Positions 21,430 to 37,210 of a stretch of DNA of 64,000 nt are shown here, in pieces. The stretch is taken from assembly GCF_029227855.1 (NCBI RefSeq), contig NZ_CP074356.1; one strand, given 5' to 3'. The notes under the pieces were generated by a model. That model was given only the letters and a program-made list of their open reading frames with translations. It was not told the DNA's origin and did no database searches. The DNA comes from Escherichia coli. Lineage in GTDB: Bacteria; Pseudomonadota; Gammaproteobacteria; Enterobacterales; Enterobacteriaceae. Numbering within the stretch: the stretch's first letter is position 1; each line of letters opens with the position of its first letter. Made by a program: the position numbers and the translations under genes.

Positions 21430-24400
21430 TCAGAACGACCAGTTCGCACCAGCCACCGCGTTCCACGGGGATTCCACACCGGCACCATGGCTATACCCCA
21501 CCCCGAGATGCCCGCTTAACGAACTGCTGAATGAGGCTTTAATACCTGCCTGATATATTCCACGTCTGCCCGACAAATCATTGACAAAATTACCGTCATT
21601 ATTCACTTTCACCCGGTTATCATCGACAAATTCTTTGCGCACAGCCGCCTTCAGCCACGGCTCAACTTCCATGCCGTTCCCCAGACGCATGTTGTAACTC
21701 AGCGTTGCGCCCAGTTCACGATATATACTGCGGGTATCGACTGATTTCGATTCCATACCATTGGATAAATGATATTCGGGGTTATCAGCGGTGAACCCCG
21801 TTAACGATGCATACGGCGTCAGGTTCCAGTTACCATCGGTAAATCGCATCCCGGTTTCAATGTGACCGCCCAGCCCGTTGCTGCGATAACTGCCGTTGGC
21901 GGCTCCACCGCTGCTCATTTTACCGGCTACGTTACTTTCAAAGCGGTTCAGCTTCACGATACCGTCCAGATAGAAACCACTTTCATGTTCCCAACTGGCA
22001 TAGCCGCCCAGAGAATAACTGCCCACACTGCCATGACCTCCGCGATCAAAACCGATATGTGAATGGGAATAACCCATAAAAGCGCCCAGCGTGGCAATTC
22101 CTTCTGGAATATCATTACGGCTGTCGATCCCCACTGTCATTCCGATCAGCGTCTGCTCAAACCCGGCACCCGCATCGGTGGTGACATTATTACGGGTGTT
22201 ATACGTCGCCCCCCAGACATTATTGTTGTGTGGACTCGCTTTCATTATGTTCAACCGCTCGCGAATACTGTTTAGCTCAGCATCAAATACCAACGGTAAT
22301 GTTGCTGCCATATTGAGTACAGCTGCCGTAGAAGGCGTGATGCGTTTCTCCGGAACGGGTGTCGGCGTTGGATCGGGAGTCGGGTCTGGATTTGGATTTG
22401 GGTTTGGGTTCGGGTTCGGGTTCGGGTTCGGGTTCGGGTTTGGATTTGGATTCGGATTTGGGTTTGGATTTGGGTTTGGGTTCGGATTTGGGTTGACATC
22501 ATTAGTCAGGTTCCAGTTGCTGTTGCCGTCGCTTTTCAGGACATACTCATAGGTCCCAAGATCAACGAAACCACCGGTATTGCCCAGCGTAAACGACGCA
22601 TCCCCTCCCCCTGTTTTCACCAGCGTCATCGCATCGTCAGACTGAGGGCTGACGCCGGTATCCTGAACAAAGATTTTAAAATTACCAGTGGCATTGTTGT
22701 TGACGACCAGTTGATCGCCCCGGGAGCCTGCAATGTTGGTATGCAGGTAGAAATTACCGCTGCCGGAAAGTTCACTGGTGGTCAGCGTATTGTAGATACC
22801 GTTAGTTGTGGCAGGCGCTGATAAATAAACATCACCGTCGTTGAGTAGCAAACTGTTTACTCTATATTCGCAGTTGCTGGTGCCTGCACAGGAATTATTG
22901 CTGTTAAGCCAGACACTGCCCCGGCTGGCAGCCGTCAGGTCGGCAAGCGTCGTATCAACGCCATTGCCGATAGTGAATGTCGCGCTATCGGTAATCCGGA
23001 TCGCCCCTTCGAGTTTAACTGGCGTAACATTATCCCGTGGCGTCATTAACGACAGGCTTCCTGTCGCGCCACTGACCGATGCATCCGCCAGCGTACCTGC
23101 GTAGACGATTGCTGTCCCGCCAGCAACCTGGAGATCTTCTGCCCGGGCCAGAGCCTGAAACTCATCTTTTGACCGCCCAAGGGTATATTGCCCACCAGAG
23201 TTAACCTTTGTGGCGGAGTCCTGACCCAGGTTTTGCATTGCACCACCCTTGTCAACCGTGGAGTCACGGGCTTCGGTACCTGCTAATACCAATAAATTAC
23301 CGCCATTTTCCAGCAACATATTGGTCGCTAAATTGCTGGCAATGGAAAAGGTGCCGTACTGGTGCGTACCGCTGATTTCAATACCGTTAGCCGTGCTCGT
23401 CTGGAGAGCGGCACCGCTGTTCTGGACGATATCTGTCGCTTTGCCATTATCGTTGACTGTCAGCGTTCCGCCTTCATTGATCGTTGTTTTTATTGCCTCT
23501 CCGTTAGCTGAAACTGTTTGTATTCCGCCGTCGTTAATTGTTGTCTCATTTGCCACACCCTCGACGATTTGTTCACCGCCAGTGAGCGTCGTGCCTGTCG
23601 CAGTGGCTTTTGTTTTGACGATCTCCCGACCGCCCGCATTGACCTGTGTTTTGGCGGAAGTGGTGTCTGACTCCACGGTTAACACGCCGCCATTTGTCAG
23701 CAGGATATTGTTCGCCGCACCCTGCTCGATGCTGAACGCGACGCCATCAGCGCGTGTCCCTGTGACCCGCGTCGCCCTGGTGGTTGCAACCAACGCGCCC
23801 TGACTACTCTGCTGTATCCCCGTTGCGCTGCCTTTCTCCCGCACATCGAGTATGCCGCCATTGTTAAGTCTGGTGGTATATGCTACGGCCTCCTCGTGGA
23901 CAATCAGCTTACCGCCAGCATCAACGATGGTATCTACCGCCGAGGTTTGAGCTACGACCGTCAGTTGGCCGGTATTTTCCAGCACAACATGCTCAGCCCT
24001 GCCTCCGGTAATAGTGAAGTGAGATGACCTCTGGTATCCATCAATATCAGTCCCCGCGCCCGTGTTGGCAACTAAAGCACTCCCCGTGTCCAGGTAAACC
24101 CCATGTGCGATACCGCCGGTATCGACAATCAGCGTGCCTCCGGCACGAATATTGCTGCCAGTTGCCGTACCTCCTTTCTCAACAACCTGCTTGCTCCCGG
24201 AAGAGATATTTGTTGTGTCAGCTTTCCCGCCGCTCTTGATATTTTGCGTGCCACTGTTGATATTAGTTCCCGTAGCAATACCATGATTATAAATATTCTG
24301 TGTACCGCCATTAATTATGGTATTAGTCGCGTTCCCGGCAACATCCATGGCCCCGCCGTTATCTATTCGGGTCGCATCAGCTTTAGCATTCGTTAAAACT

Positions 24401-24780
24401 GACATTGTTCCTTTATCGTTAATTATCGTCCCTGTAGAAATTCCTCCCTCACTAATTGTCTGGCTGCCACCGTTAATGACTGTATTATTAGCCTGCCCCT
24501 GATAAGAGCCATGACCAGATACCTCTTGATGTCCACCAGTATCAATAACACTTCCATTAGAAATCCCGCCATATACCTCCTGATTGCCGTGATTGATGAT
24601 ATGAGCATTATTTGTTGTACCTCGTTCATCTACTCTTTGGCTGCCGTCTACAGTCTCATCATTTACAACGCCAATAACATTAGAAGTGAAGGCCGTCATC
24701 CCAGGCGGGGCATATATCATGGCAGCTATCAATAAGGAAAGTACTGAGCGGTGAAAATAATAGCGACTGATTCTGTTCAT
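21430..24780 (-). CDS. type Va autotransporter adhesin (AIDA-I/Ag43-like passenger, Asn-Pro repeat linker, C-terminal beta-barrel); apparently intact
   Basis: Extended autotransporter signal peptide MNRISRYYFHRSVLSLLIAAMIYAPPGMTA from the ATG at 24780 (GAGG 9 nt upstream); glycine-rich beta-helix passenger repeats; (NP)n-DPTPDPTPTPVP linker; C-terminus ...AGANWSF. Occupies the ymgG-minE interval where K-12 carries only short remnants (recalled). Confidence 0.85.
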   Translation of the reverse strand: MNRISRYYFHRSVLSLLIAAMIYAPPGMTAFTSNVIGVVNDETVDGSQRVDERGTTNNAHIINHGNQEVYGGISNGSVIDTGGHQEVSGHGSYQGQANNTVINGGSQTISEGGISTGTIINDKGTMSVLTNAKADATRIDNGGAMDVAGNATNTIINGGTQNIYNHGIATGTNINSGTQNIKSGGKADTTNISSGSKQVVEKGGTATGSNIRAGGTLIVDTGGIAHGVYLDTGSALVANTGAGTDIDGYQRSSHFTITGGRAEHVVLENTGQLTVVAQTSAVDTIVDAGGKLIVHEEAVAYTTRLNNGGILDVREKGSATGIQQSSQGALVATTRATRVTGTRADGVAFSIEQGAANNILLTNGGVLTVESDTTSAKTQVNAGGREIVKTKATATGTTLTGGEQIVEGVANETTINDGGIQTVSANGEAIKTTINEGGTLTVNDNGKATDIVQNSGAALQTSTANGIEISGTHQYGTFSIASNLATNMLLENGGNLLVLAGTEARDSTVDKGGAMQNLGQDSATKVNSGGQYTLGRSKDEFQALARAEDLQVAGGTAIVYAGTLADASVSGATGSLSLMTPRDNVTPVKLEGAIRITDSATFTIGNGVDTTLADLTAASRGSVWLNSNNSCAGTSNCEYRVNSLLLNDGDVYLSAPATTNGIYNTLTTSELSGSGNFYLHTNIAGSRGDQLVVNNNATGNFKIFVQDTGVSPQSDDAMTLVKTGGGDASFTLGNTGGFVDLGTYEYVLKSDGNSNWNLTNDVNPNPNPNPNPNPNPNPNPNPNPNPNPNPNPNPNPNPDPTPDPTPTPVPEKRITPSTAAVLNMAATLPLVFDAELNSIRERLNIMKASPHNNNVWGATYNTRNNVTTDAGAGFEQTLIGMTVGIDSRNDIPEGIATLGAFMGYSHSHIGFDRGGHGSVGSYSLGGYASWEHESGFYLDGIVKLNRFESNVAGKMSSGGAANGSYRSNGLGGHIETGMRFTDGNWNLTPYASLTGFTADNPEYHLSNGMESKSVDTRSIYRELGATLSYNMRLGNGMEVEPWLKAAVRKEFVDDNRVKVNNDGNFVNDLSGRRGIYQAGIKASFSSSLSGHLGVGYSHGAGVESPWNAVAGANWSF
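22350..22494 (-). repeat. in-frame tandem hexanucleotide repeat (ggttYg/ggattt units) encoding (Asn-Pro)~17 followed by DPTPDPTPTPVP; coordinates approximate
   Basis: Visible run gggtttgggttcgggttcgggttc... on the plus strand; translates on the minus strand to NPNPNP... inside the autotransporter. Confidence 0.8.
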
Positions 24781-25392
24781 AAATTTCATCCTCTGAAAAA
24801 TGAATACTGAGTACTGAGTAGCGTCTAAGTAACCTAAGCTCGGCTGCAACATCAGCCCGCAGGCACCAGACCAGGGGATTCATCCTGAAGAGACAGCGCA
24901 GGTGTATTGTGTTCACCGCTCACCAAAGACATCATGATGAAATGATGATATCCCGCATAATAAAGAGGCATTTTTTAAACGCAATGCGCTGAAGTGTAGT
25001 TGGATAAAAAATCACTCTTTTCAGATAATACTGTCGTACGCTTATCTTTCGACAATGAGGCCGTCGGCAAAATAAAATGACTAATGTAATCGTTGCTGAT
25101 GAATATCTTCTGCTCACATAAAAATCACACAATAATATTGATAAATCAGATTATCTTACCTTTACAACATTGCGTTAACAGTCAATGACACTTCTTGAAT
25201 AAAAATATTGTCAATCAATGAGTTATTCCTCATTTAAGATTATTCTCATTCACGTAAAAAACATAATTCCTATCATCACAGCCACGCTCATTTTGAATTA
25301 TCTGAATAATAGCGAGCGTTCTTTAGTTAAGCAGATCTTAATTGAAGACGAAATTATTGTGTGTGCAACTTACTTAATACCGGACATCTAAG

Positions 25393-25737: not shown

Positions 25738-25746
25738 GGAATGATG

Positions 25747-26076
25747 ATGAAAAAATTTGCTTTACTGGCGGGTCTGTTTGTTTTCGCACCAATGACCTGG
25801 GCGCAGGACTACAATATTAAAAACGGTTTGCCGTCAGAAACCTATATTACTTGCGCAGAAGCCAACGAAATGGCAAAAACTGACAGCGCACAGGTTGCAG
25901 AAATTGTTGCGGTAATGGGTAATGCCAGCGTTGCCAGCCGTGATTTAAAAATTGAGCAATTTCCGGAACTAAGCGCCAAAGTGGTAGAAAAACTGAATCA
26001 GGTTTGCGCTAAAGACCCGCAAATGCTGTTGATCACGGCAATTGATGACACTATGCGTGCTATCGGCAAAAAATAA
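25747..26076 (+). CDS. ymgD: periplasmic protein YmgD
   Basis: 109 aa from ATG at 25747 (MKKFALLAGLFVFAPMTWAQDYNIKNG...). Confidence 0.8.
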   Translation: MKKFALLAGLFVFAPMTWAQDYNIKNGLPSETYITCAEANEMAKTDSAQVAEIVAVMGNASVASRDLKIEQFPELSAKVVEKLNQVCAKDPQMLLITAIDDTMRAIGKK

Positions 26077-26089
26077 TATTTAATATGTT

Positions 26090-26120
26090 ACCGCGTCGAT
26101 GAATTCGACGCGGTATTTTA
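26090..26120. terminator. bidirectional terminator between convergent ymgD and the 887-aa autotransporter gene
   Basis: accgcgtcga-tgaat-tcgacgcggt followed by atttta. Confidence 0.55.
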
Positions 26121-26131
26121 GCTAACGGGGA

Positions 26132-28795
26132 TCAGAACTTATATTTCAGGCCCACCATCACTGCGGTGTCATTGTAGCCATTATCACCCAGCTGCACGCC
26201 CACATTACCCCAGACGCTGGCCGCCGGATTCAGATTGCCATTTACGCCAAGTTTAATTTCCCCCAGATTACGCGCCCCGTCTTGTTCAACTTTCACACCG
26301 TTCATTGAGACAGCAAAATCTTTACTGTTATGGATCCAGTTCATTTCAACAAAAGGTTCAAAGTCGTCACCGTGCGGACCGCTGTTTTTCTCCTGAGTAC
26401 GAATAAAGGTACGGAAGCCGAGTCGGGTCTGGATGTTGTTATTTGCGTCATTCTCAATACGTGAGCCATTGGCTTCCGTGTGCGCATTATGATCGACGCC
26501 CATCCAGATAGCCTGTGCCTGTGGCTGGAAGATCCACGTATATTTCGCCGCTTCCAGACCAAAGGATTTATTCAGGGCAAAACCGTAACCCGCTTCCAGC
26601 GAGACGGTTGCACCTTTCGCGCTATAGGATTCATAGGCTAACTCATCCCCTTTCACCGAGTTTTTAAACCAGCTATATTGCGCCCAGGCGTCAATGTATG
26701 CGCCTTTTTTACTGATGTCATCGGCAAACCAGGTGGCATACAGCCCTGCGCTATAGCCTCTGACACTCCCTTTCGAACGATAATCCGACACGCTGGAATG
26801 AGTTGAGTTGTAGTCGCGGGCATAACCAGCCATCACTCCCAAACGCCAACTGTCACTGTCGGTAAAACCACCGGTTAACAGATCGGCCCCTAACTGTGAG
26901 ACGTAGCGATGCGAGGTCGTTCTCAACTGTCCGTTGCTGTCACGCCAGGCATTATGCCCGCCAATTTGACGTAGCCAAAGTCGGCTTGAACGCTCCTGTT
27001 CAGTTACAGGATCGATGTAACGCGTTTCACCTGCACGGTCGTTCAGACGCATAACAAAAAGAGTGTTAGCGGCTGCCAGGTTGGCGACGTAACTTCCAGC
27101 TTCGGGGCGCAGAACGGGGGTAGGCGTTTCTGTTGATTCTGAATTTCCCTCTGAGCTGTTATCCTCCTCATTCACTGACTGATAACTTGTCAAATACCAG
27201 TTTTTGCCTTGTTGTTTTAGTTGATATTCGAAAGCTCCAGCTGCAATCCTTGCATCACCTTGTCTGAAGGCATCTGCTGGAGATTCATCGCCATTCACAG
27301 TTATGAGTTCGATCCCATTTAGCGTGGCCGCGCCGCTTCCTCCAGCATTTTTCACATAGACGGTAGTTGAACCCGAAGTATTGCCCTCAACAATAAGTCT
27401 GTCAGTAGCCGATTTATCATCACCTAATACGGTGCGGGTATTAAGCTGACCATTATTACCGACATAATTACCTTTTACGGTTAACGTTTTTCCCTGGGTA
27501 AATGTTTGACCATCATCATACGAAAGATTGATAATACTGTCTGAATTAGTCAGATGGATAACAACGGAGTCATCTTTCATATTCCAGATTGTGTTTTCTG
27601 AAAGCTTCAGTGTAGTTGTGCCGCTAACGAGTTTAGTCGCTCCATTTAGAGTAGAGTCGGACGAAATTATGTTTAAGCCACCTCCAGTATTATTAACCAG
27701 AATATTATTACCAGGCGTGATAATACTTCGATTAAGGATGCTTACATCCGTTGTAGTTTTGTTAACATCAATACTATCCAAAGCACTTGAAAGTTCGACA
27801 CTTGATAGTGCTATTTTGGCTTGAGAATCGATATTTGATGCATCAATTGATATTCCTTTATCTTGTTCTGATACCGCGGTGACATTGGAAAAAAATAACT
27901 CTCCACCATTGTATATTTTTGCAATGGGGGCTTTAGTGCCTTTTGTTGTAATAGAACTATTTTTTATATCAATGTTACCTTGTCGAATAGCAACTGCATA
28001 ACTTCCATGCTCCCCGGTTTCAAGTGCCACATAATCTAAATTAATATATGCTTTTTCCCCATTAGCATAAGCACCATAGCTATTAGTGCCATTAGTTGTT
28101 ATGGAACCACCATTCATTTTTAAATCAGCACGGCTAATAACTTCGTAACTGTTAGAATCACTAACTTCATCATCTACAGCATCGACACATGTTCGAGACT
28201 CTCCAGAACTTGAACATGCAAGAACACCTACTGCATTTTCCCCATAGGTAACAATGTTCGTTTTATCTGTGGTTTCAAGACGGGTGTTATTTTCCACAAT
28301 CCCAGAATCATTAACCTGACTTAAAAGTCCCGCTGAATATGCCCCCCTCGTCTCGACTGAATTATCACCATTCATAACGATGGTGCCACCAAATTCACTG
28401 ACTACTGCGCTGGCTGTTATCCCTCCATTAACATCTTGGTTATTTCCTTTGTCAGATACGCTTCCAGAGGTCTTAATACCGCTATCGCTTATATATAATA
28501 CTTTGTTATGACTATCAACAGAAATACCATAAGATCCATCACCACTAGTCATCACACTGGCATTATTTATATATCCAGTTACACCGTCATCCACTTTCAC
28601 AGCATGGCTTTCGTCTTTAGTGGTTAGATACTCTCCATTACTTATCGAATTATTATCTTTGATTTCAATCGGCGATTCTTCATCAGTTATATAGGAAAGT
28701 ATACTATAATCATCCAACAATTGTGTTGCATATGCATTACCCACCGCCAAAGCAATAAGTCCTAAACTAAACCCGGGGAGTTTTTTCAGTTTCAT
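26132..28795 (-). CDS. ycgH: type Va autotransporter, apparently intact (counterpart of the K-12 ycgH pseudogene by position)
   Basis: 887-aa ORF with signal peptide MKLKKLPGFSLGLIALAVGNAYA and terminal beta-barrel ending ...VGLKYKF; located between ymgD and ymgF. Confidence 0.8.
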   Translation of the reverse strand: MKLKKLPGFSLGLIALAVGNAYATQLLDDYSILSYITDEESPIEIKDNNSISNGEYLTTKDESHAVKVDDGVTGYINNASVMTSGDGSYGISVDSHNKVLYISDSGIKTSGSVSDKGNNQDVNGGITASAVVSEFGGTIVMNGDNSVETRGAYSAGLLSQVNDSGIVENNTRLETTDKTNIVTYGENAVGVLACSSSGESRTCVDAVDDEVSDSNSYEVISRADLKMNGGSITTNGTNSYGAYANGEKAYINLDYVALETGEHGSYAVAIRQGNIDIKNSSITTKGTKAPIAKIYNGGELFFSNVTAVSEQDKGISIDASNIDSQAKIALSSVELSSALDSIDVNKTTTDVSILNRSIITPGNNILVNNTGGGLNIISSDSTLNGATKLVSGTTTLKLSENTIWNMKDDSVVIHLTNSDSIINLSYDDGQTFTQGKTLTVKGNYVGNNGQLNTRTVLGDDKSATDRLIVEGNTSGSTTVYVKNAGGSGAATLNGIELITVNGDESPADAFRQGDARIAAGAFEYQLKQQGKNWYLTSYQSVNEEDNSSEGNSESTETPTPVLRPEAGSYVANLAAANTLFVMRLNDRAGETRYIDPVTEQERSSRLWLRQIGGHNAWRDSNGQLRTTSHRYVSQLGADLLTGGFTDSDSWRLGVMAGYARDYNSTHSSVSDYRSKGSVRGYSAGLYATWFADDISKKGAYIDAWAQYSWFKNSVKGDELAYESYSAKGATVSLEAGYGFALNKSFGLEAAKYTWIFQPQAQAIWMGVDHNAHTEANGSRIENDANNNIQTRLGFRTFIRTQEKNSGPHGDDFEPFVEMNWIHNSKDFAVSMNGVKVEQDGARNLGEIKLGVNGNLNPAASVWGNVGVQLGDNGYNDTAVMVGLKYKF

Positions 28796-29194
28796 AGATT
28801 AACCATCCATTCATTGGATTAACAAACATTCCTGGTCAAATAACCTATGAGTTCAGATTACCAAAACGGAGGGTAAAGACAAAAACAAAAGCACAAAAAA
28901 TTTAAATAGATAAACAGCGACAATATATAAATGATAAATAAGGCGGCATTATCATTTTTCACCTTATTTTCATGACATTGATCACTTTGGGGTGACGATT
29001 TTGTTTAACAAATAACTCTTCGACATCAAAATTATTAATAGTTGCCATAGAAATTATTTCGATGATATATAAAACCAACTGTGATAACACCAGGGTTGAC
29101 AACTATTTGCGCAATAATTCCTTTCCTTCAATGATCCAGGCGTTCACTGTCAGCACCCCATTCAGCCGCATACTGACAGTGAGAAACTGAAAGA

Positions 29195-29413
29195 TTATTG
29201 CTGATCCCTGTGGCTGACGAGTCTTTCCCTTAATCGATTAATCAGATTGATCGCCAGCCAAACAAGGGCATTAAGCAAATTTATCGTCACAAGCACTTCT
29301 CCCAGCCCGGTACTGGGTTTTGCAATAAGGATGACCAGGATAGTGATCAGCATAAATGCAATGGAAAAGATGATATAGAGAGTGAAATAATCCAGATTAT
29401 TACTATTGTTCAT
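29195..29413 (-). CDS. ymgF: small inner-membrane division-associated protein YmgF
   Basis: 72 aa from the internal ATG (MNNSNNLDYFTLYIIFSIAFMLITILVILIA...), two transmembrane helices. Confidence 0.75.
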   Translation of the reverse strand: MNNSNNLDYFTLYIIFSIAFMLITILVILIAKPSTGLGEVLVTINLLNALVWLAINLINRLRERLVSHRDQQ

Positions 29414-34340: not shown

Positions 34341-35072
34341 GTGGCTTATTACAGCATTGGTGATGTTGCTGAACGTTGCGGGATTAATCCTGTCACTCTC
34401 CGGGCCTGGCAACGCCGCTACGGTTTGTTAAAACCACAGCGCAGTGAAGGCGGACACCGACTCTTTGATGAAGAAGACATACAACGCATCGAAGAGATCA
34501 AGCGTTGGATAAGTAATGGCGTCCCTGTAAGCAAAGTTAAAGCATTACTGGAAACCACCAGCCAGGATACGGAAGATGACTGGAGCCGCCTGCAAGAAGA
34601 GATGATGTCAATTCTTCGTATGGCTAATCCTGCCAAACTACGCGCGAGAATTATTTCACTGGGTCGAGAGTACCCAGTAGATCAATTGATTAATCATGTT
34701 TACCTTCCTGTTCGCCAGCGTCTCGTGCTTGATCACAACACCTCCCGCATTATGAGCAGTATGTTTGACGGCGCATTAATTGAATACGCAGCAGCCTCGC
34801 TTTTCGAAATGCGCCGTAAGCCCGGTAAAGAAGCCATTCTGATGGCGTGGAATGTTGAAGAGAGAGCACGATTGTGGCTGGAAGCATGGCGTTTATCATT
34901 GTCAGGATGGCACATTTCTGTTCTTGCTGATCCCATTGAAGCGCCGCGCCCGGAACTGTTCCCAACGCAAACATTGATTGTCTGGACAGGCATGGCACCA
35001 ACGAGAAGGCAAAACGAACTTTTACAACACTGGGGTGAGCAAGGTTATAAAGTCATCTTTCATGCCCCCTAA
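34341..35072 (+). CDS. bluR: MerR-family repressor BluR (YcgE)
   Basis: 243 aa; N-terminal MerR HTH ([44 protein letters not shown]). Confidence 0.88.
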
Positions 35073-35292
35073 TTTCACCTTTATCCCGCCCCTTAGACAG
35101 AATCTTATAATCTGAACCCACAACAGCGTTTGTACCGGAGCTGGTCCGTTGCAAAATGCTCACCGGGAGAATTCAGGTAATCCCCCTTTCACACTTTGTA
35201 CATATCACAGCCAAAGGACAGACCAGATTGAAGTGGTAAAACCGATCGTGCACACTACGCAGTCTCACAACTAACAAGAGGTTATTATCCTG

Positions 35293-35697
35293 ATGGATCA
35301 GGTTGTTGTTTTTCAAAAGATGTTTGAGCAAGTGAGAAAAGAGCAAAACTTCTCCTGGTTTTATTCAGAATTAAAACATTACCGTATTGCACATTACATT
35401 TATTATCTGGCTACGGATAACATCAGAATTATTACTCACGATGACACGGTTTTGTTATTAAGAGGAACCAGGAACCTGTTAAAAGTTAGTACGACCAAGA
35501 ACCCTGCTAAAATAAAAGAGGCCGCATTGCTTCATATTTGCGGAAAATCAACATTTCGGGAATACTGTTCAACACTGGCAGACGCGGGCGTTTTCCGGTG
35601 GGTTACTGATGTTAATCATAACAAACGCAGTTACTACGCCATTGATAATACGCTTTTATATATTGAAGATGTAGAAAATAATAAACCATTAATCTAG
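35293..35697 (+). CDS. ycgX: YcgX (DUF1398-type protein)
   Basis: 134-aa ORF at the conserved position next to bluR. Confidence 0.72.
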   Translation: MDQVVVFQKMFEQVRKEQNFSWFYSELKHYRIAHYIYYLATDNIRIITHDDTVLLLRGTRNLLKVSTTKNPAKIKEAALLHICGKSTFREYCSTLADAGVFRWVTDVNHNKRSYYAIDNTLLYIEDVENNKPLI

Positions 35698-35959
35698 CTA
35701 AAGTTGGATGCTTAAAAAATGCTTCATAATTCAGTAAGGCATTAGCATAATGGAAATAAAAGTGCAGAGACTATTCATATGGATGAGTAATACTATCTTT
35801 TTATTGCCACCCATAAATAATCACCAGATCAATACTATCAACTTGATATTTGAAATGTGATCACTTGACTTTTGATACGTTATTTTATAGCGGTTAACAT
35901 ATTTATAAAAAACAACGGGCGTATAACACGCCCGTTTCAATATTTAACACATGTAGAGA

Positions 35960-37210
35960 TTACATGTTCTTGATGATCGCATCACCAAACTCTGAACATT
36001 TCAGCAGTTTAGCGCCATCCATCAGACGCTCGAAGTCATAGGTTACAGTCTTGGCGTTGATTGCGCCTTCCATACCTTTAACAATCAGGTCTGCGGCTTC
36101 AGTCCAGCCCATATGGCGCAGCATCATCTCAGCGGAGAGAATAATAGAGCCTGGGTTTACTTTGTCCTGACCGGCATATTTCGGCGCAGTACCGTGGGTG
36201 GCTTCAAACAGGGCGCATTCGTCACCGATGTTTGCGCCTGGGGCGATACCGATACCGCCGACCTGTGCAGCCAGAGCGTCAGAAATGTAGTCACCGTTCA
36301 GGTTCATACAGGCGATAACATCATATTCAGCCGGACGCAGCAGGATCTGTTGCAGGAATGCGTCAGCAATCACGTCTTTAATGACGATCTCTTTGCCGGT
36401 ATTCGGGTTTTTAACTTTCATCCACGGGCCGCCGTCGATCAGTTCACCGCCAAACTCTTCACGCGCCAGCTGGTAGCCCCAGTCTTTAAACGCGCCTTCG
36501 GTGAACTTCATGATGTTGCCTTTGTGCACCAGGGTCACAGAGTCACGATCGTTAGCAATTGCGTATTCGATCGCTGCACGAACCAGACGTTTGGTGCCTT
36601 CTTCCGAACACGGCTTAATACCGATACCGCAATGTTCCGGGAAGCGAATTTTCTTCACGCCCATCTCTTCACGCAGGAATTTAATCACTTTCTCGGCGTC
36701 GGCAGAGTCAGCTTTCCATTCGATACCCGCATAAATGTCTTCCGAGTTTTCACGGAAGATAACCATATCGGTCAGTTCAGGATGTTTAACCGGGCTTGGG
36801 GTGCCCTGATAGTAACGTACCGGACGCAGGCAGATGTAGAGATCCAGTTCCTGGCGCAGGGCAACGTTCAGAGAACGAATACCGCCACCAACCGGAGTGG
36901 TCAGAGGGCCTTTAATGGCAACGCGATATTCACGAATCAGATCAAGGGTTTCAGCAGGCAGCCAGACATCCTGACCATAAACCTGTGTGGATTTTTCACC
37001 GGTGTAAATTTCCATCCAGGAGATTTTACGCTCGCCTTTATAGGCTTTCTCGACTGCAGCGTCGACCACTTTCAGCATGGCTGGGGTTACATCTACACCG
37101 ATTCCATCACCTTCAATGTAAGGGATAATCGGATTTTCAGGAACGTTGAGTTTGCCGTTTTGCAGGGTGATCTTCTTGCCTTGTGCCGGAACAACTACTT
37201 TACTTTCCAT
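35960..37210 (-). CDS. icd: NADP-dependent isocitrate dehydrogenase
   Basis: 416-aa [48 protein letters not shown]...; 3' end abuts ycgX with no prophage. Confidence 0.96.

Follow-up and report, generated by a model that had tools for sequence, protein, structure and literature searches.

Identity of the open reading frame between ymgD and ymgF

In Escherichia coli K-12, the locus between ymgD and ymgF is occupied by ycgH (b1169/b1170), an annotated pseudogene, which raises the question of whether an open reading frame at the same position in another strain is an intact form of this gene, how unusual such a form is, and what its product might do. The sequence considered here is a stretch of 64,000 nucleotides from the E. 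coli contig NZ_CP074356.1 (referred to as the window). An ATG-started reading frame at 26132..28795 (minus strand; 887 codons plus stop) is translated without any internal stop. It is flanked by ymgD (25741..26076, plus strand; Pfam YmgD, E 5e-49) and by ymgF (29195..29413, minus strand), the latter identified by the NCBIfam YmgF equivalog (E 4.8e-41 over aa 13–84 of the ORF) and by RefSeq annotation of the identical region. The gene order ymgD/ycgH/ymgF, within the minCDE to bluR interval, was identical in all genomes sampled. RefSeq uses the gene name ycgH, and its entry WP_275877270.1, "autotransporter YcgH", is an exact match to the window protein; the same 887-aa protein recurs on five independent public contigs, which come from different projects.

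An earlier, sequence-only reading of the window had described an uninterrupted 887-aa frame at this position, with a signal peptide and a C-terminal barrel ending in F, and all of these features are present. Its assignment of the frame to ycgH is borne out by shared synteny, by 96.9% DNA identity along the full gene, and by the RefSeq name. We are confident that 26132..28795 represents an intact, ancestral-state allele of ycgH, whose product is a type Va (classical) autotransporter built like AIDA-I and pertactin. The observation of an intact ycgH is correct and was already known; the gene is common and already annotated in databases. The finding is ordinary, because hundreds of sequenced E. 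coli carry the intact gene and databases name it.

Comparison with the K-12 pseudogene

The two loci share their position and the same upstream region, and the window gene aligns colinearly with K-12 ycgH from end to end, with 68 mismatches and two indels over 2,664 nt (megablast: 100% coverage, 96.9% identity). The K-12 counterpart had been described as disrupted in the sequence-only reading; it carries the RefSeq flag "frameshifted; internal stop", and both lesions could be located. The first is a CAA to TAA change at K-12 codon 507, corresponding to codon 512 of the window gene, which has no stop there. The second, likewise absent from the window, is the loss of one nucleotide from a G-run close to the 3' end (window gene nt 2589, codon 863). 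K-12 additionally shows a 15-nt in-frame deletion (NNQDV) relative to the window gene; this difference is not a lesion, because intact 882-aa alleles have it too. Besides the lesions, only one further substitution separates K-12 from one such 882-aa allele (L010). Neither codon 435 nor codon 512 nor the G-run is interrupted in the window or in the other intact alleles, which supports the view that the open frame is the ancestral state. The K-12 lesions constitute a natural allele rather than a peculiarity of the laboratory strain, being common to 1,494 of 5,426 complete genomes.

Domain organization of the predicted protein

The AF2 model of the whole protein (pLDDT 83.9, pTM 0.75) consists of a beta-helix, a helix and a barrel. 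The signal peptide (aa 1–23, MKLKKLPGFSLGLIALAVGNAYA; 28727..28795, minus strand), with TQ following the cleavage site, comprises a basic n-region with three Lys residues, a hydrophobic core and an A-Y-A cleavage motif (AXA site). It was called by eye together with hydropathy (Kyte-Doolittle 9-mer mean up to 2.5); residues 1–41 have a pLDDT <50, as expected of a cleaved leader.

The variable N-terminal passenger (aa 24–409; 27569..28726, minus strand) is encoded by DNA of low GC content (0.34–0.40). In the AF2 model, short beta-strands run throughout the passenger, with pLDDT values mostly >80 over residues 45–540, and Foldseek matched it to pertactin (1DAB), IcsA and Hap. A pair of cysteines, Cys194/Cys203, is conserved. 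The 386 residues of this segment did not match any family in Pfam or NCBIfam, and the variable passenger gave 66 representative hits among 1.84 billion proteins, nearly confined to Escherichia. The model shows a plain beta-helix without a globular insert, and protease, esterase or lipase domains were not found in it. Tandem repeats were not detected inside ycgH, the sole array of the region lying in the neighbouring autotransporter gene.

The pertactin-like C-terminal part of the passenger (aa 410–556; 27128..27568, minus strand) contains Pfam AC_1 (PF18883) at 410–526 (E 3e-28, 98 bits, cut-off 27) and Pertactin at 432–536; the match to the IcsA autochaperone 3ML3 (E 7e-19) identifies it as a type-1 autochaperone. 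It is followed by a linker (aa 557–605; 26981..27127, minus strand) that connects passenger to barrel within a single polypeptide and is situated inside the match to 4MEE; in it, a predicted pore-spanning alpha-helix at 564–578 directly precedes the first barrel strand, starting at 605. The translocator beta-barrel (aa 606–887; 26135..26980, minus strand) matches PF03797, the Autotransporter beta-domain, at 606–865 (E 5.7e-41, 141 bits, cut-off 26) as well as TIGR01414 (E 4.7e-111, 372 bits, cut-off 16), and the modelled barrel superposes on 4MEE with a TM score of 0.95 and an rmsd of 1.9 Å (Foldseek). Its C-terminus, VMVGLKYKF, is hydrophobic at positions 1, 3, 5, 7 and 9 from the end and has the terminal Phe of an OMP beta-signal. 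YcgH hence combines a signal peptide (by inspection), a barrel, a linker helix (in the model) and a terminal beta-signal, as type Va autotransporters do. NCBIfam holds no equivalog-level YcgH model; matches in this respect stayed below cut-off and covered the C-terminal transport unit alone.

Upstream region and transcriptional signals

The AT-rich ymgF–ycgH intergenic region (28796..29194, minus strand), presumed to be the promoter and regulatory region of ycgH, shows 97% conservation among three classes of allele. The gene has a conserved 400-bp upstream region of its own, and it is the neighbours that are BluR- and RcsB-controlled: BluR control in the K-12 literature refers to ycgZ-ymgABC (PMC3509220), and RcsB control to ymgG-ymgD, with ymgD being induced by RcsB in K-12 (PMC2731931, Table 3). 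For the K-12 ymgF–ycgH spacer, a sigma-70 promoter and H-NS binding were reported from genomic SELEX (PMC3946193), and an E-sigmaS ChIP-seq peak was assigned to ycgH (PMC4447067). These K-12 signals were the only ones found in the regulation literature on ycgH, the BluR/Rcs reports covering its neighbours. Expression of ycgH is probably low and conditional, as suggested by the AT-rich, H-NS-bound DNA and the sigma-S RNA polymerase at the K-12 locus.

A scan of the coding strand of the spacer for the sigma-70 consensus revealed no strong -35/-10 pair, its total being no higher than in shuffled sequences, and the published TTGACA-19-TATAAG hexamers (PMC3946193) are absent from the K-12 locus at spacers of 17–21 nt. 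Since the published hexamers were not found and the scan did not rise above the shuffles, we make no claim on the position of the ycgH promoter. The terminator scan recovered a GC-rich hairpin with an 11-bp stem (26089..26115) and A/T-rich flanks on both sides, located between the stop codons of the convergent genes ymgD and ycgH; it is a possible bidirectional terminator by virtue of its position, as the total of three sites in the scan was not above that of shuffles.

Prevalence, decay and passenger exchange

YcgH-type sequence around codon 512 occurs in 2,238 of the 5,426 complete E. coli genomes, 1,494 of them with the K-12 stop and 693 without it. Eleven of 14 sampled genomes lacking the K-12 stop carry an intact gene, so that ycgH is intact in roughly 10% of complete E. 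coli genomes, an estimate built on lesion-specific 63-mers and on 14 sampled annotations, eight of which were top-listed ties rather than a random draw. Intact alleles of 882–890 aa are present in hundreds of complete genomes, and single variants of 887 aa were each found on 721 to at least 1000 contigs. Intact ycgH is a minority state, yet a common one.

Across roughly 30 sampled genomes, the gene was inactivated independently no fewer than seven times. The routes of decay include insertions of IS3, IS2 and IS1, frameshifts, deletions and a private TGA; deletion remnants make up about 20% of the sampled entries. This TGA, at codon 435, is all that distinguishes ycgH in the nearest complete genome from the window gene, G at this codon being the state of K-12 and of nearly all of the 2,208 genomes that have the segment. 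The locus is a mosaic in which conservation of the promoter region, the signal peptide and the barrel goes together with exchange of at least three types of passenger. Between allele lineages, dN/dS amounts to 0.76–1.0 in the passenger (aa 24–409), 0.06 in the autochaperone and 0.02–0.12 in the barrel. At the population level ycgH is dispensable, with recurrent independent inactivation and with swapping of its outer passenger between lineages. The passenger dN/dS and the recurrent inactivation fit weak or fluctuating selection, and with a passenger dN/dS of about 0.8–1.0 and at least seven inactivations, an open frame is no guarantee of function.

The frame in the window might accordingly be open in a gene that is nevertheless cryptic, permanently silenced by H-NS or impaired by missense changes, and that has simply not acquired a stop yet. 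The recurrent decay by the K-12-type stop and frameshift, TGA-435, IS elements and deletions is in line with this explanation, as are the passenger dN/dS, the AT-rich 5' half of the gene and the H-NS binding reported in the K-12 spacer. However, the low dN/dS of barrel and autochaperone indicates long-term purifying selection on the secretion machinery, the passenger indels of 15 nt and 9 nt are in frame and so keep it open, and the syntenic site of a divergent Escherichia genome holds intact, persisting YcgH orthologues; moreover, diversifying selection on a surface antigen would likewise raise the passenger dN/dS. We consider a cryptic gene unlikely, though it is the likeliest of the alternatives to an intact type Va autotransporter gene.

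A more speculative reading, which we regard as doubtful, sees the ymgF–ymgD locus as a site of antagonistic selection, where promoter, signal peptide and barrel would form a fixed "socket" and the passenger would be swapped or the gene killed (in about 80% of genomes). The exposed beta-helix might then be useful as an adhesin in stationary phase or biofilms, encoded alongside the small-protein cluster under BluR/Rcs control, and yet carry a cost as an antigen or phage receptor; the allele of the window would be a functional, conditionally expressed adhesin rather than a neutral survivor.

Proposed mechanism and function

What is established for the autotransporter family in general suggests a mechanism for the intact protein. 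Its signal peptide of 23 residues would direct Sec export, and BAM would insert the C-terminal 282 residues into the outer membrane as a 12-stranded barrel whose pore would hold the linker helix (about 564–578). The passenger would be threaded outward, C-terminus first, and the autochaperone segment 410–556 would nucleate its folding to a right-handed beta-helix on the cell surface. A role in adhesion, aggregation or biofilm formation is likely, because no catalytic module is present and relatives sharing the fold have such roles; the label "adhesin" would be assigned to YcgH by family resemblance alone. In the literature on ycgH and ECIAI39_1904 and in autotransporter surveys, no functional study of YcgH was found; K-12 ycgH appears there as a neutral pseudogene integration site, in two genome-wide binding tables and in one virulence-gene heat map.

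That the passenger is instead an enzyme, a toxin or a phage or colicin receptor, which would explain its frequent loss, appears improbable. Such a non-adhesin would be compatible with a passenger segment that lacks a Pfam or NCBIfam family and is almost restricted to Escherichia, and with patterns of loss and replacement like those of surface molecules under antagonistic selection; the plain beta-helix of the model, its structural neighbours among the stalks of pertactin, IcsA and Hap, and the lack of protease, esterase and lipase domains speak against it. A sequencing or assembly artefact, or a frame unrelated to ycgH, can be dismissed, since its sole hint, a nearest complete genome that is one base away and has a stop, is outweighed by the identical protein on five independent contigs, the hundreds of intact alleles, the near-universal G at codon 435 and the colinear K-12 alignment.

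A second autotransporter gene and implications

The sequence-only reading had pointed to a neighbouring intact autotransporter, and this holds: 21430..24780 (minus strand), at the position of the K-12 ycgI remnant, codes for 1116 aa from Met25 of a 1140-aa ORF, whereas K-12 retains there only a 344-nt barrel remnant. Pfam detected six AIDA repeats, Pertactin and the Autotransporter domain in the product; three Pro-Asn repeats aside, this protein has 99% identity to RefSeq WP_087503993.1. The strain of the window thus keeps an intact YcgH, as about one tenth of sequenced E. coli do, plus a second intact autotransporter. Beyond bookkeeping, the significance is slight: K-12, in which ycgH and the ycgI remnant are dead, is unrepresentative at this place. 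The intact natural allele is a ready template for testing a role in adhesion or biofilm formation, and the recurrent loss of ycgH together with passenger exchange provides a modest example of surface-protein turnover that will not surprise specialists on E. coli autotransporters.

Relation to known autotransporters

IcsA/VirG of Shigella and pertactin of Bordetella have, like YcgH, a beta-helical passenger and a type-1 autochaperone (5KE1, E 1e-16; 1DAB aligned over 603 columns). With identities of 15–34% these are structural analogies only, and YcgH gave evidence of neither the actin-nucleation motifs of IcsA nor the RGD function of pertactin.

The autochaperone, linker helix and barrel of YcgH resemble the transport unit of AIDA-I from E. 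coli 2787 (4MEE; phmmer E 2e-76, 35% identity). In contrast to AIDA-I, YcgH lacks the 19-residue AIDA repeats (no match to PF16168) and has a much shorter passenger, and repeats of the kind targeted by heptosyltransferase were not detected in it. The NCBIfam model auto_AIDA-I (NF033176) scored 283 bits against a cut-off of 1200, matching the C-terminal part only. YcgH was therefore rejected as an AIDA-I orthologue: it has no AIDA repeats, falls below the NF033176 cut-off, and shares with AIDA-I the transport unit alone.

The "ECIAI39_1904 family autotransporter adhesin", which VFDB includes under its locus tag (PMC5654935), is an allele of the same locus as ycgH. Alleles of this type share with the window gene an identical signal peptide, an upstream spacer that is about 97% identical, and a linker and barrel (aa 560–887) with 99.7% identity; the passenger (aa 24–555), in contrast, shares only about 40% identity, interrupted by many indels, and represents a different surface-exposed cassette. 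The RefSeq autotransporter YcgH proteins WP_275877270.1, WP_001522908.1 and WP_129547404.1 represent the same family member as the window protein and show no difference of substance; WP_001522908.1, which is carried by at least five sampled complete genomes, differs from it in five residues.

The ycgH gene and its genomic neighbourhood

The reading frame at 26132..28795 (-) comprises 887 codons from ATG and contains no internal stop, exactly as the sequence-only reading had claimed. A megablast search of 5,426 complete E. coli genomes identified the locus as ycgH, and its flanking genes are indeed ymgD (25741..26076, +) and ymgF (29195..29413, -). The protein is identical to RefSeq WP_275877270.1 ("autotransporter YcgH"), and five independent contigs in public databases encode it. 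Beyond ymgF, on the same side, pdeG/ycgG, ymgC-ariR-ymgA-ycgZ, bluF and bluR follow; on the opposite side of ycgH lie ymgG, ymgI, ymgJ, a second autotransporter gene and minEDC. Since icd (35960..37210, -) is located only about 900 bp past bluR (34341..35072, +), the segment of K-12 comprising ycgX/iraM and the e14 prophage, which is integrated at icd, is absent from this strain. The bluR-icd gap (35073-35959) contains one 134-aa ORF (35293..35697, +).

The neighbouring autotransporter gene, likewise intact, corresponds to an ORF at 21430..24852 (-); its product combines six AIDA repeats with a pertactin domain, a linker of Asn-Pro repeats and a barrel. Translation most likely starts at Met25 (window 24780; 21430-24780), resulting in a protein of 1116 aa with the leader MNRISRYYFHRSVLSLLIAAMIYAPPGMTA. 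At this site, K-12 has no more than a 344-nt remnant of the barrel; the window has two intact autotransporters, compared to none in K-12. The linker is encoded by an 18-nt/6-nt tandem array (22376-22494), and the corresponding protein of strain JNEC-KY178 has three more Pro-Asn units. In RefSeq the protein is named "YpjA/EhaD"; its site corresponds to the position of the ycgI remnant of K-12 by minE, not to the ypjA locus of K-12. At least 80% of the gene is covered in about 2,463 complete genomes.

Inactivation of ycgH in K-12 and other strains

The ycgH gene of K-12 (MC4100) is annotated as "frameshifted; internal stop", consistent with the disruption stated in the sequence-only reading. Global alignment with this gene supported the identity of the ORF as ycgH and revealed 68 substitutions and three further events, namely an in-frame 15-nt gap in K-12 at nt 352 of the window gene, a CAA to TAA change at K-12 codon 507 (window codon 512), and a G-run shortened by one G at nt 2589 (codon 863). 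The 15-nt gap also occurs in intact alleles of 882 aa and is therefore no lesion. As only one further substitution separates K-12 from one such allele (L010), inactivation in K-12 must be recent. At codons 435 and 512 and in the G-run, the window gene shares the state of other intact alleles and therefore represents the ancestral, unbroken form.

Allele counts based on lesion-specific 63-mers indicated YcgH-type sequence around codon 512 in 2,238 of the 5,426 complete genomes, with the exact TAA version of K-12 in 1,494 and the exact CAA version in 693 of them. Annotation and sequence of 14 CAA-type genomes revealed intact genes (882, 887 or 890 aa) in 11, which by extrapolation suggests about 550 intact copies, i.e., about 10% of complete genomes. 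The 63-mer counts and the sampled genomes thus identify the K-12 lesions as a natural, lineage-wide allele rather than a laboratory accident. In an evenly spaced sample of 40 rows of the megablast results, the YcgH type was intact in 5 and disrupted in 12; 8 rows were deletion remnants (61% coverage), and 13 showed a different passenger (45% coverage), annotated as full-length "ECIAI39_1904 family autotransporter adhesin" in 3 cases and split in 10. Near-identical proteins of 887 aa are widespread: two individual sequences occur on at least 1000 contigs each and a third on 721. Intact genes are a minority, but a common one, and not unusual.

Decay of ycgH is recurrent. The closest complete genome, JNEC-KY178 (NZ_AP045174), differs from the window by one base within ycgH, TGA replacing GGA at codon 435 (window 27493), which renders the gene a pseudogene; present in only 2 of the 5,426 genomes, this stop is a very recent, private loss. 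Independent hits include a further +1 frameshift (nt 901), a deletion of one nucleotide (nt 831), insertions of IS3 and IS2 within the gene and of one IS1 just upstream, and large internal deletions. The protein cluster that contains YcgH at 90% identity comprises 5,132 distinct sequences, of which many are fragments. In strain EC12 (locus L020), which carries a deletion remnant, the adjoining pdeG gene (EAL phosphodiesterase, 3901-4692) is annotated as truncated, its N-terminus missing; decay in that lineage therefore reaches beyond ycgH. In strains Iso00041 and EC23, both with a K-12-type ycgH pseudogene, the adjacent ymgD too is listed as a pseudogene, with an internal stop.

Mosaic structure and regulation

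The half of the gene coding for the barrel has a GC content of 0.47-0.52, which drops to 0.34-0.40 in the half coding for the passenger and in the spacer upstream. The ECIAI39_1904-type protein, encoded by an alternative allele at the locus, has a signal peptide identical to that of YcgH and a linker and barrel of 99.7% identity, but is only about 40% identical over residues 24-555. Another passenger, P0136 (880 aa), represents a third type and occurs at the syntenic pdeG-ymgF-autotransporter-ymgD-ymgG-minE site of an Escherichia assembly that is more divergent. One site hence accommodates at least three divergent types of passenger (window 26981-28726, compared to loci L021 and L023/L024 of other Escherichia genomes). 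In every allele class, the deletion remnant among them, the 400-bp spacer separating ymgF from ycgH is conserved to about 97%. When YcgH-type lineages are compared, the barrel has a dN/dS of 0.02-0.12 and the autochaperone/linker one of 0.06; the value of 0.76-1.0 for the N-terminal passenger is compatible with relaxed constraint and diversifying selection alike, which the data do not separate. Among 1.84 billion representative proteins, only 66 matched the passenger at E ≤ 0.001, mostly YcgH fragments besides about 20 full-length autotransporters of about 30% identity; the passenger is nearly restricted to its own gene family. The pattern fits a conserved secretion scaffold with an exchangeable, fast-evolving exposed domain.

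Placement within a BluR/Rcs-controlled cluster agrees with the position of ycgH between ycgZ-ymgABC, controlled by BluR (PMC3509220), and ymgG-ymgD, induced by RcsB (PMC2731931); control of ycgH itself by BluR or Rcs is hypothetical. The literature searched contained regulatory data on ycgH only from two genome-wide studies of K-12, which reported a sigma-70 "constitutive" promoter and H-NS binding in the ymgF-ycgH spacer (PMC3946193), and a ChIP-seq peak of E-sigmaS that was assigned to ycgH (PMC4447067). Published promoter hexamers for the spacer (PMC3946193) were sought but not located, and a scan with consensus sequences revealed no strong -35/-10 pair there. The stops of the convergent genes ymgD and ycgH enclose a GC-rich hairpin with a perfect 11-bp stem and A/T-rich flanks (TACCGCGTCGA-tgaat-TCGACGCGGTA, 26089-26115), which may act as a bidirectional terminator for both genes.

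Protein architecture and relation to known autotransporters

By inspection, the YcgH N-terminus (MKLKKLPGFSLGLIALAVGNAYA/TQ) has the tripartite structure of a Sec signal peptide, and the C-terminus (...VMVGLKYKF) is an alternating-hydrophobic, aromatic-terminal outer-membrane barrel motif, in accordance with the features initially noticed. Pfam assigned residues 606-865 to an autotransporter beta-domain (E 5.7e-41), 410-526 to a type-1 autochaperone and 432-536 to a segment resembling pertactin; the generic NCBIfam autotransporter barrel model matched with E 4.7e-111. Only two cysteines are present, Cys194 and Cys203 (window 28187-28216), both in the passenger and separated by nine positions (ACSSSGESRTC). 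They are kept in most of the distant full-length relatives in the alignment, suggesting a small disulphide-bonded loop that would be compatible with autotransporter secretion.

The well-established biology of type Va secretion underlies the pathway proposed for YcgH. The protein would be exported through Sec, its barrel inserted with the aid of BAM, the linker helix residing inside the pore, and the passenger translocated C-to-N, the autochaperone templating folding of the surface-exposed beta-helix. By analogy, adhesion or aggregation would be the most probable role. No functional study of YcgH was found in the literature searched, and the locus is mildly interesting only, for this reason and for its repeated loss and passenger exchange.

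An AlphaFold2 model, based on an alignment of 26 sequences, was confident (mean pLDDT 83.9, pTM 0.75) and comprised short strands as in a beta-helix from residues ~45 to 540, a helix (564-578), and long antiparallel strands over 605-886. Globular modules such as a protease or an esterase were absent from the Pfam results, the model and the structure search. In Foldseek searches, the C-terminal unit of the model superposed on 4MEE, the transport unit of AIDA-I (E 1.9e-25, TM 0.95, rmsd 1.9 Å), and the passenger aligned with pertactin across 603 columns and also with IcsA and Hap; a PDB sequence search retrieved the same relatives. The window carries an allele of a known gene, ycgH, that has been annotated before and is often intact; its product belongs to a well-known protein class.
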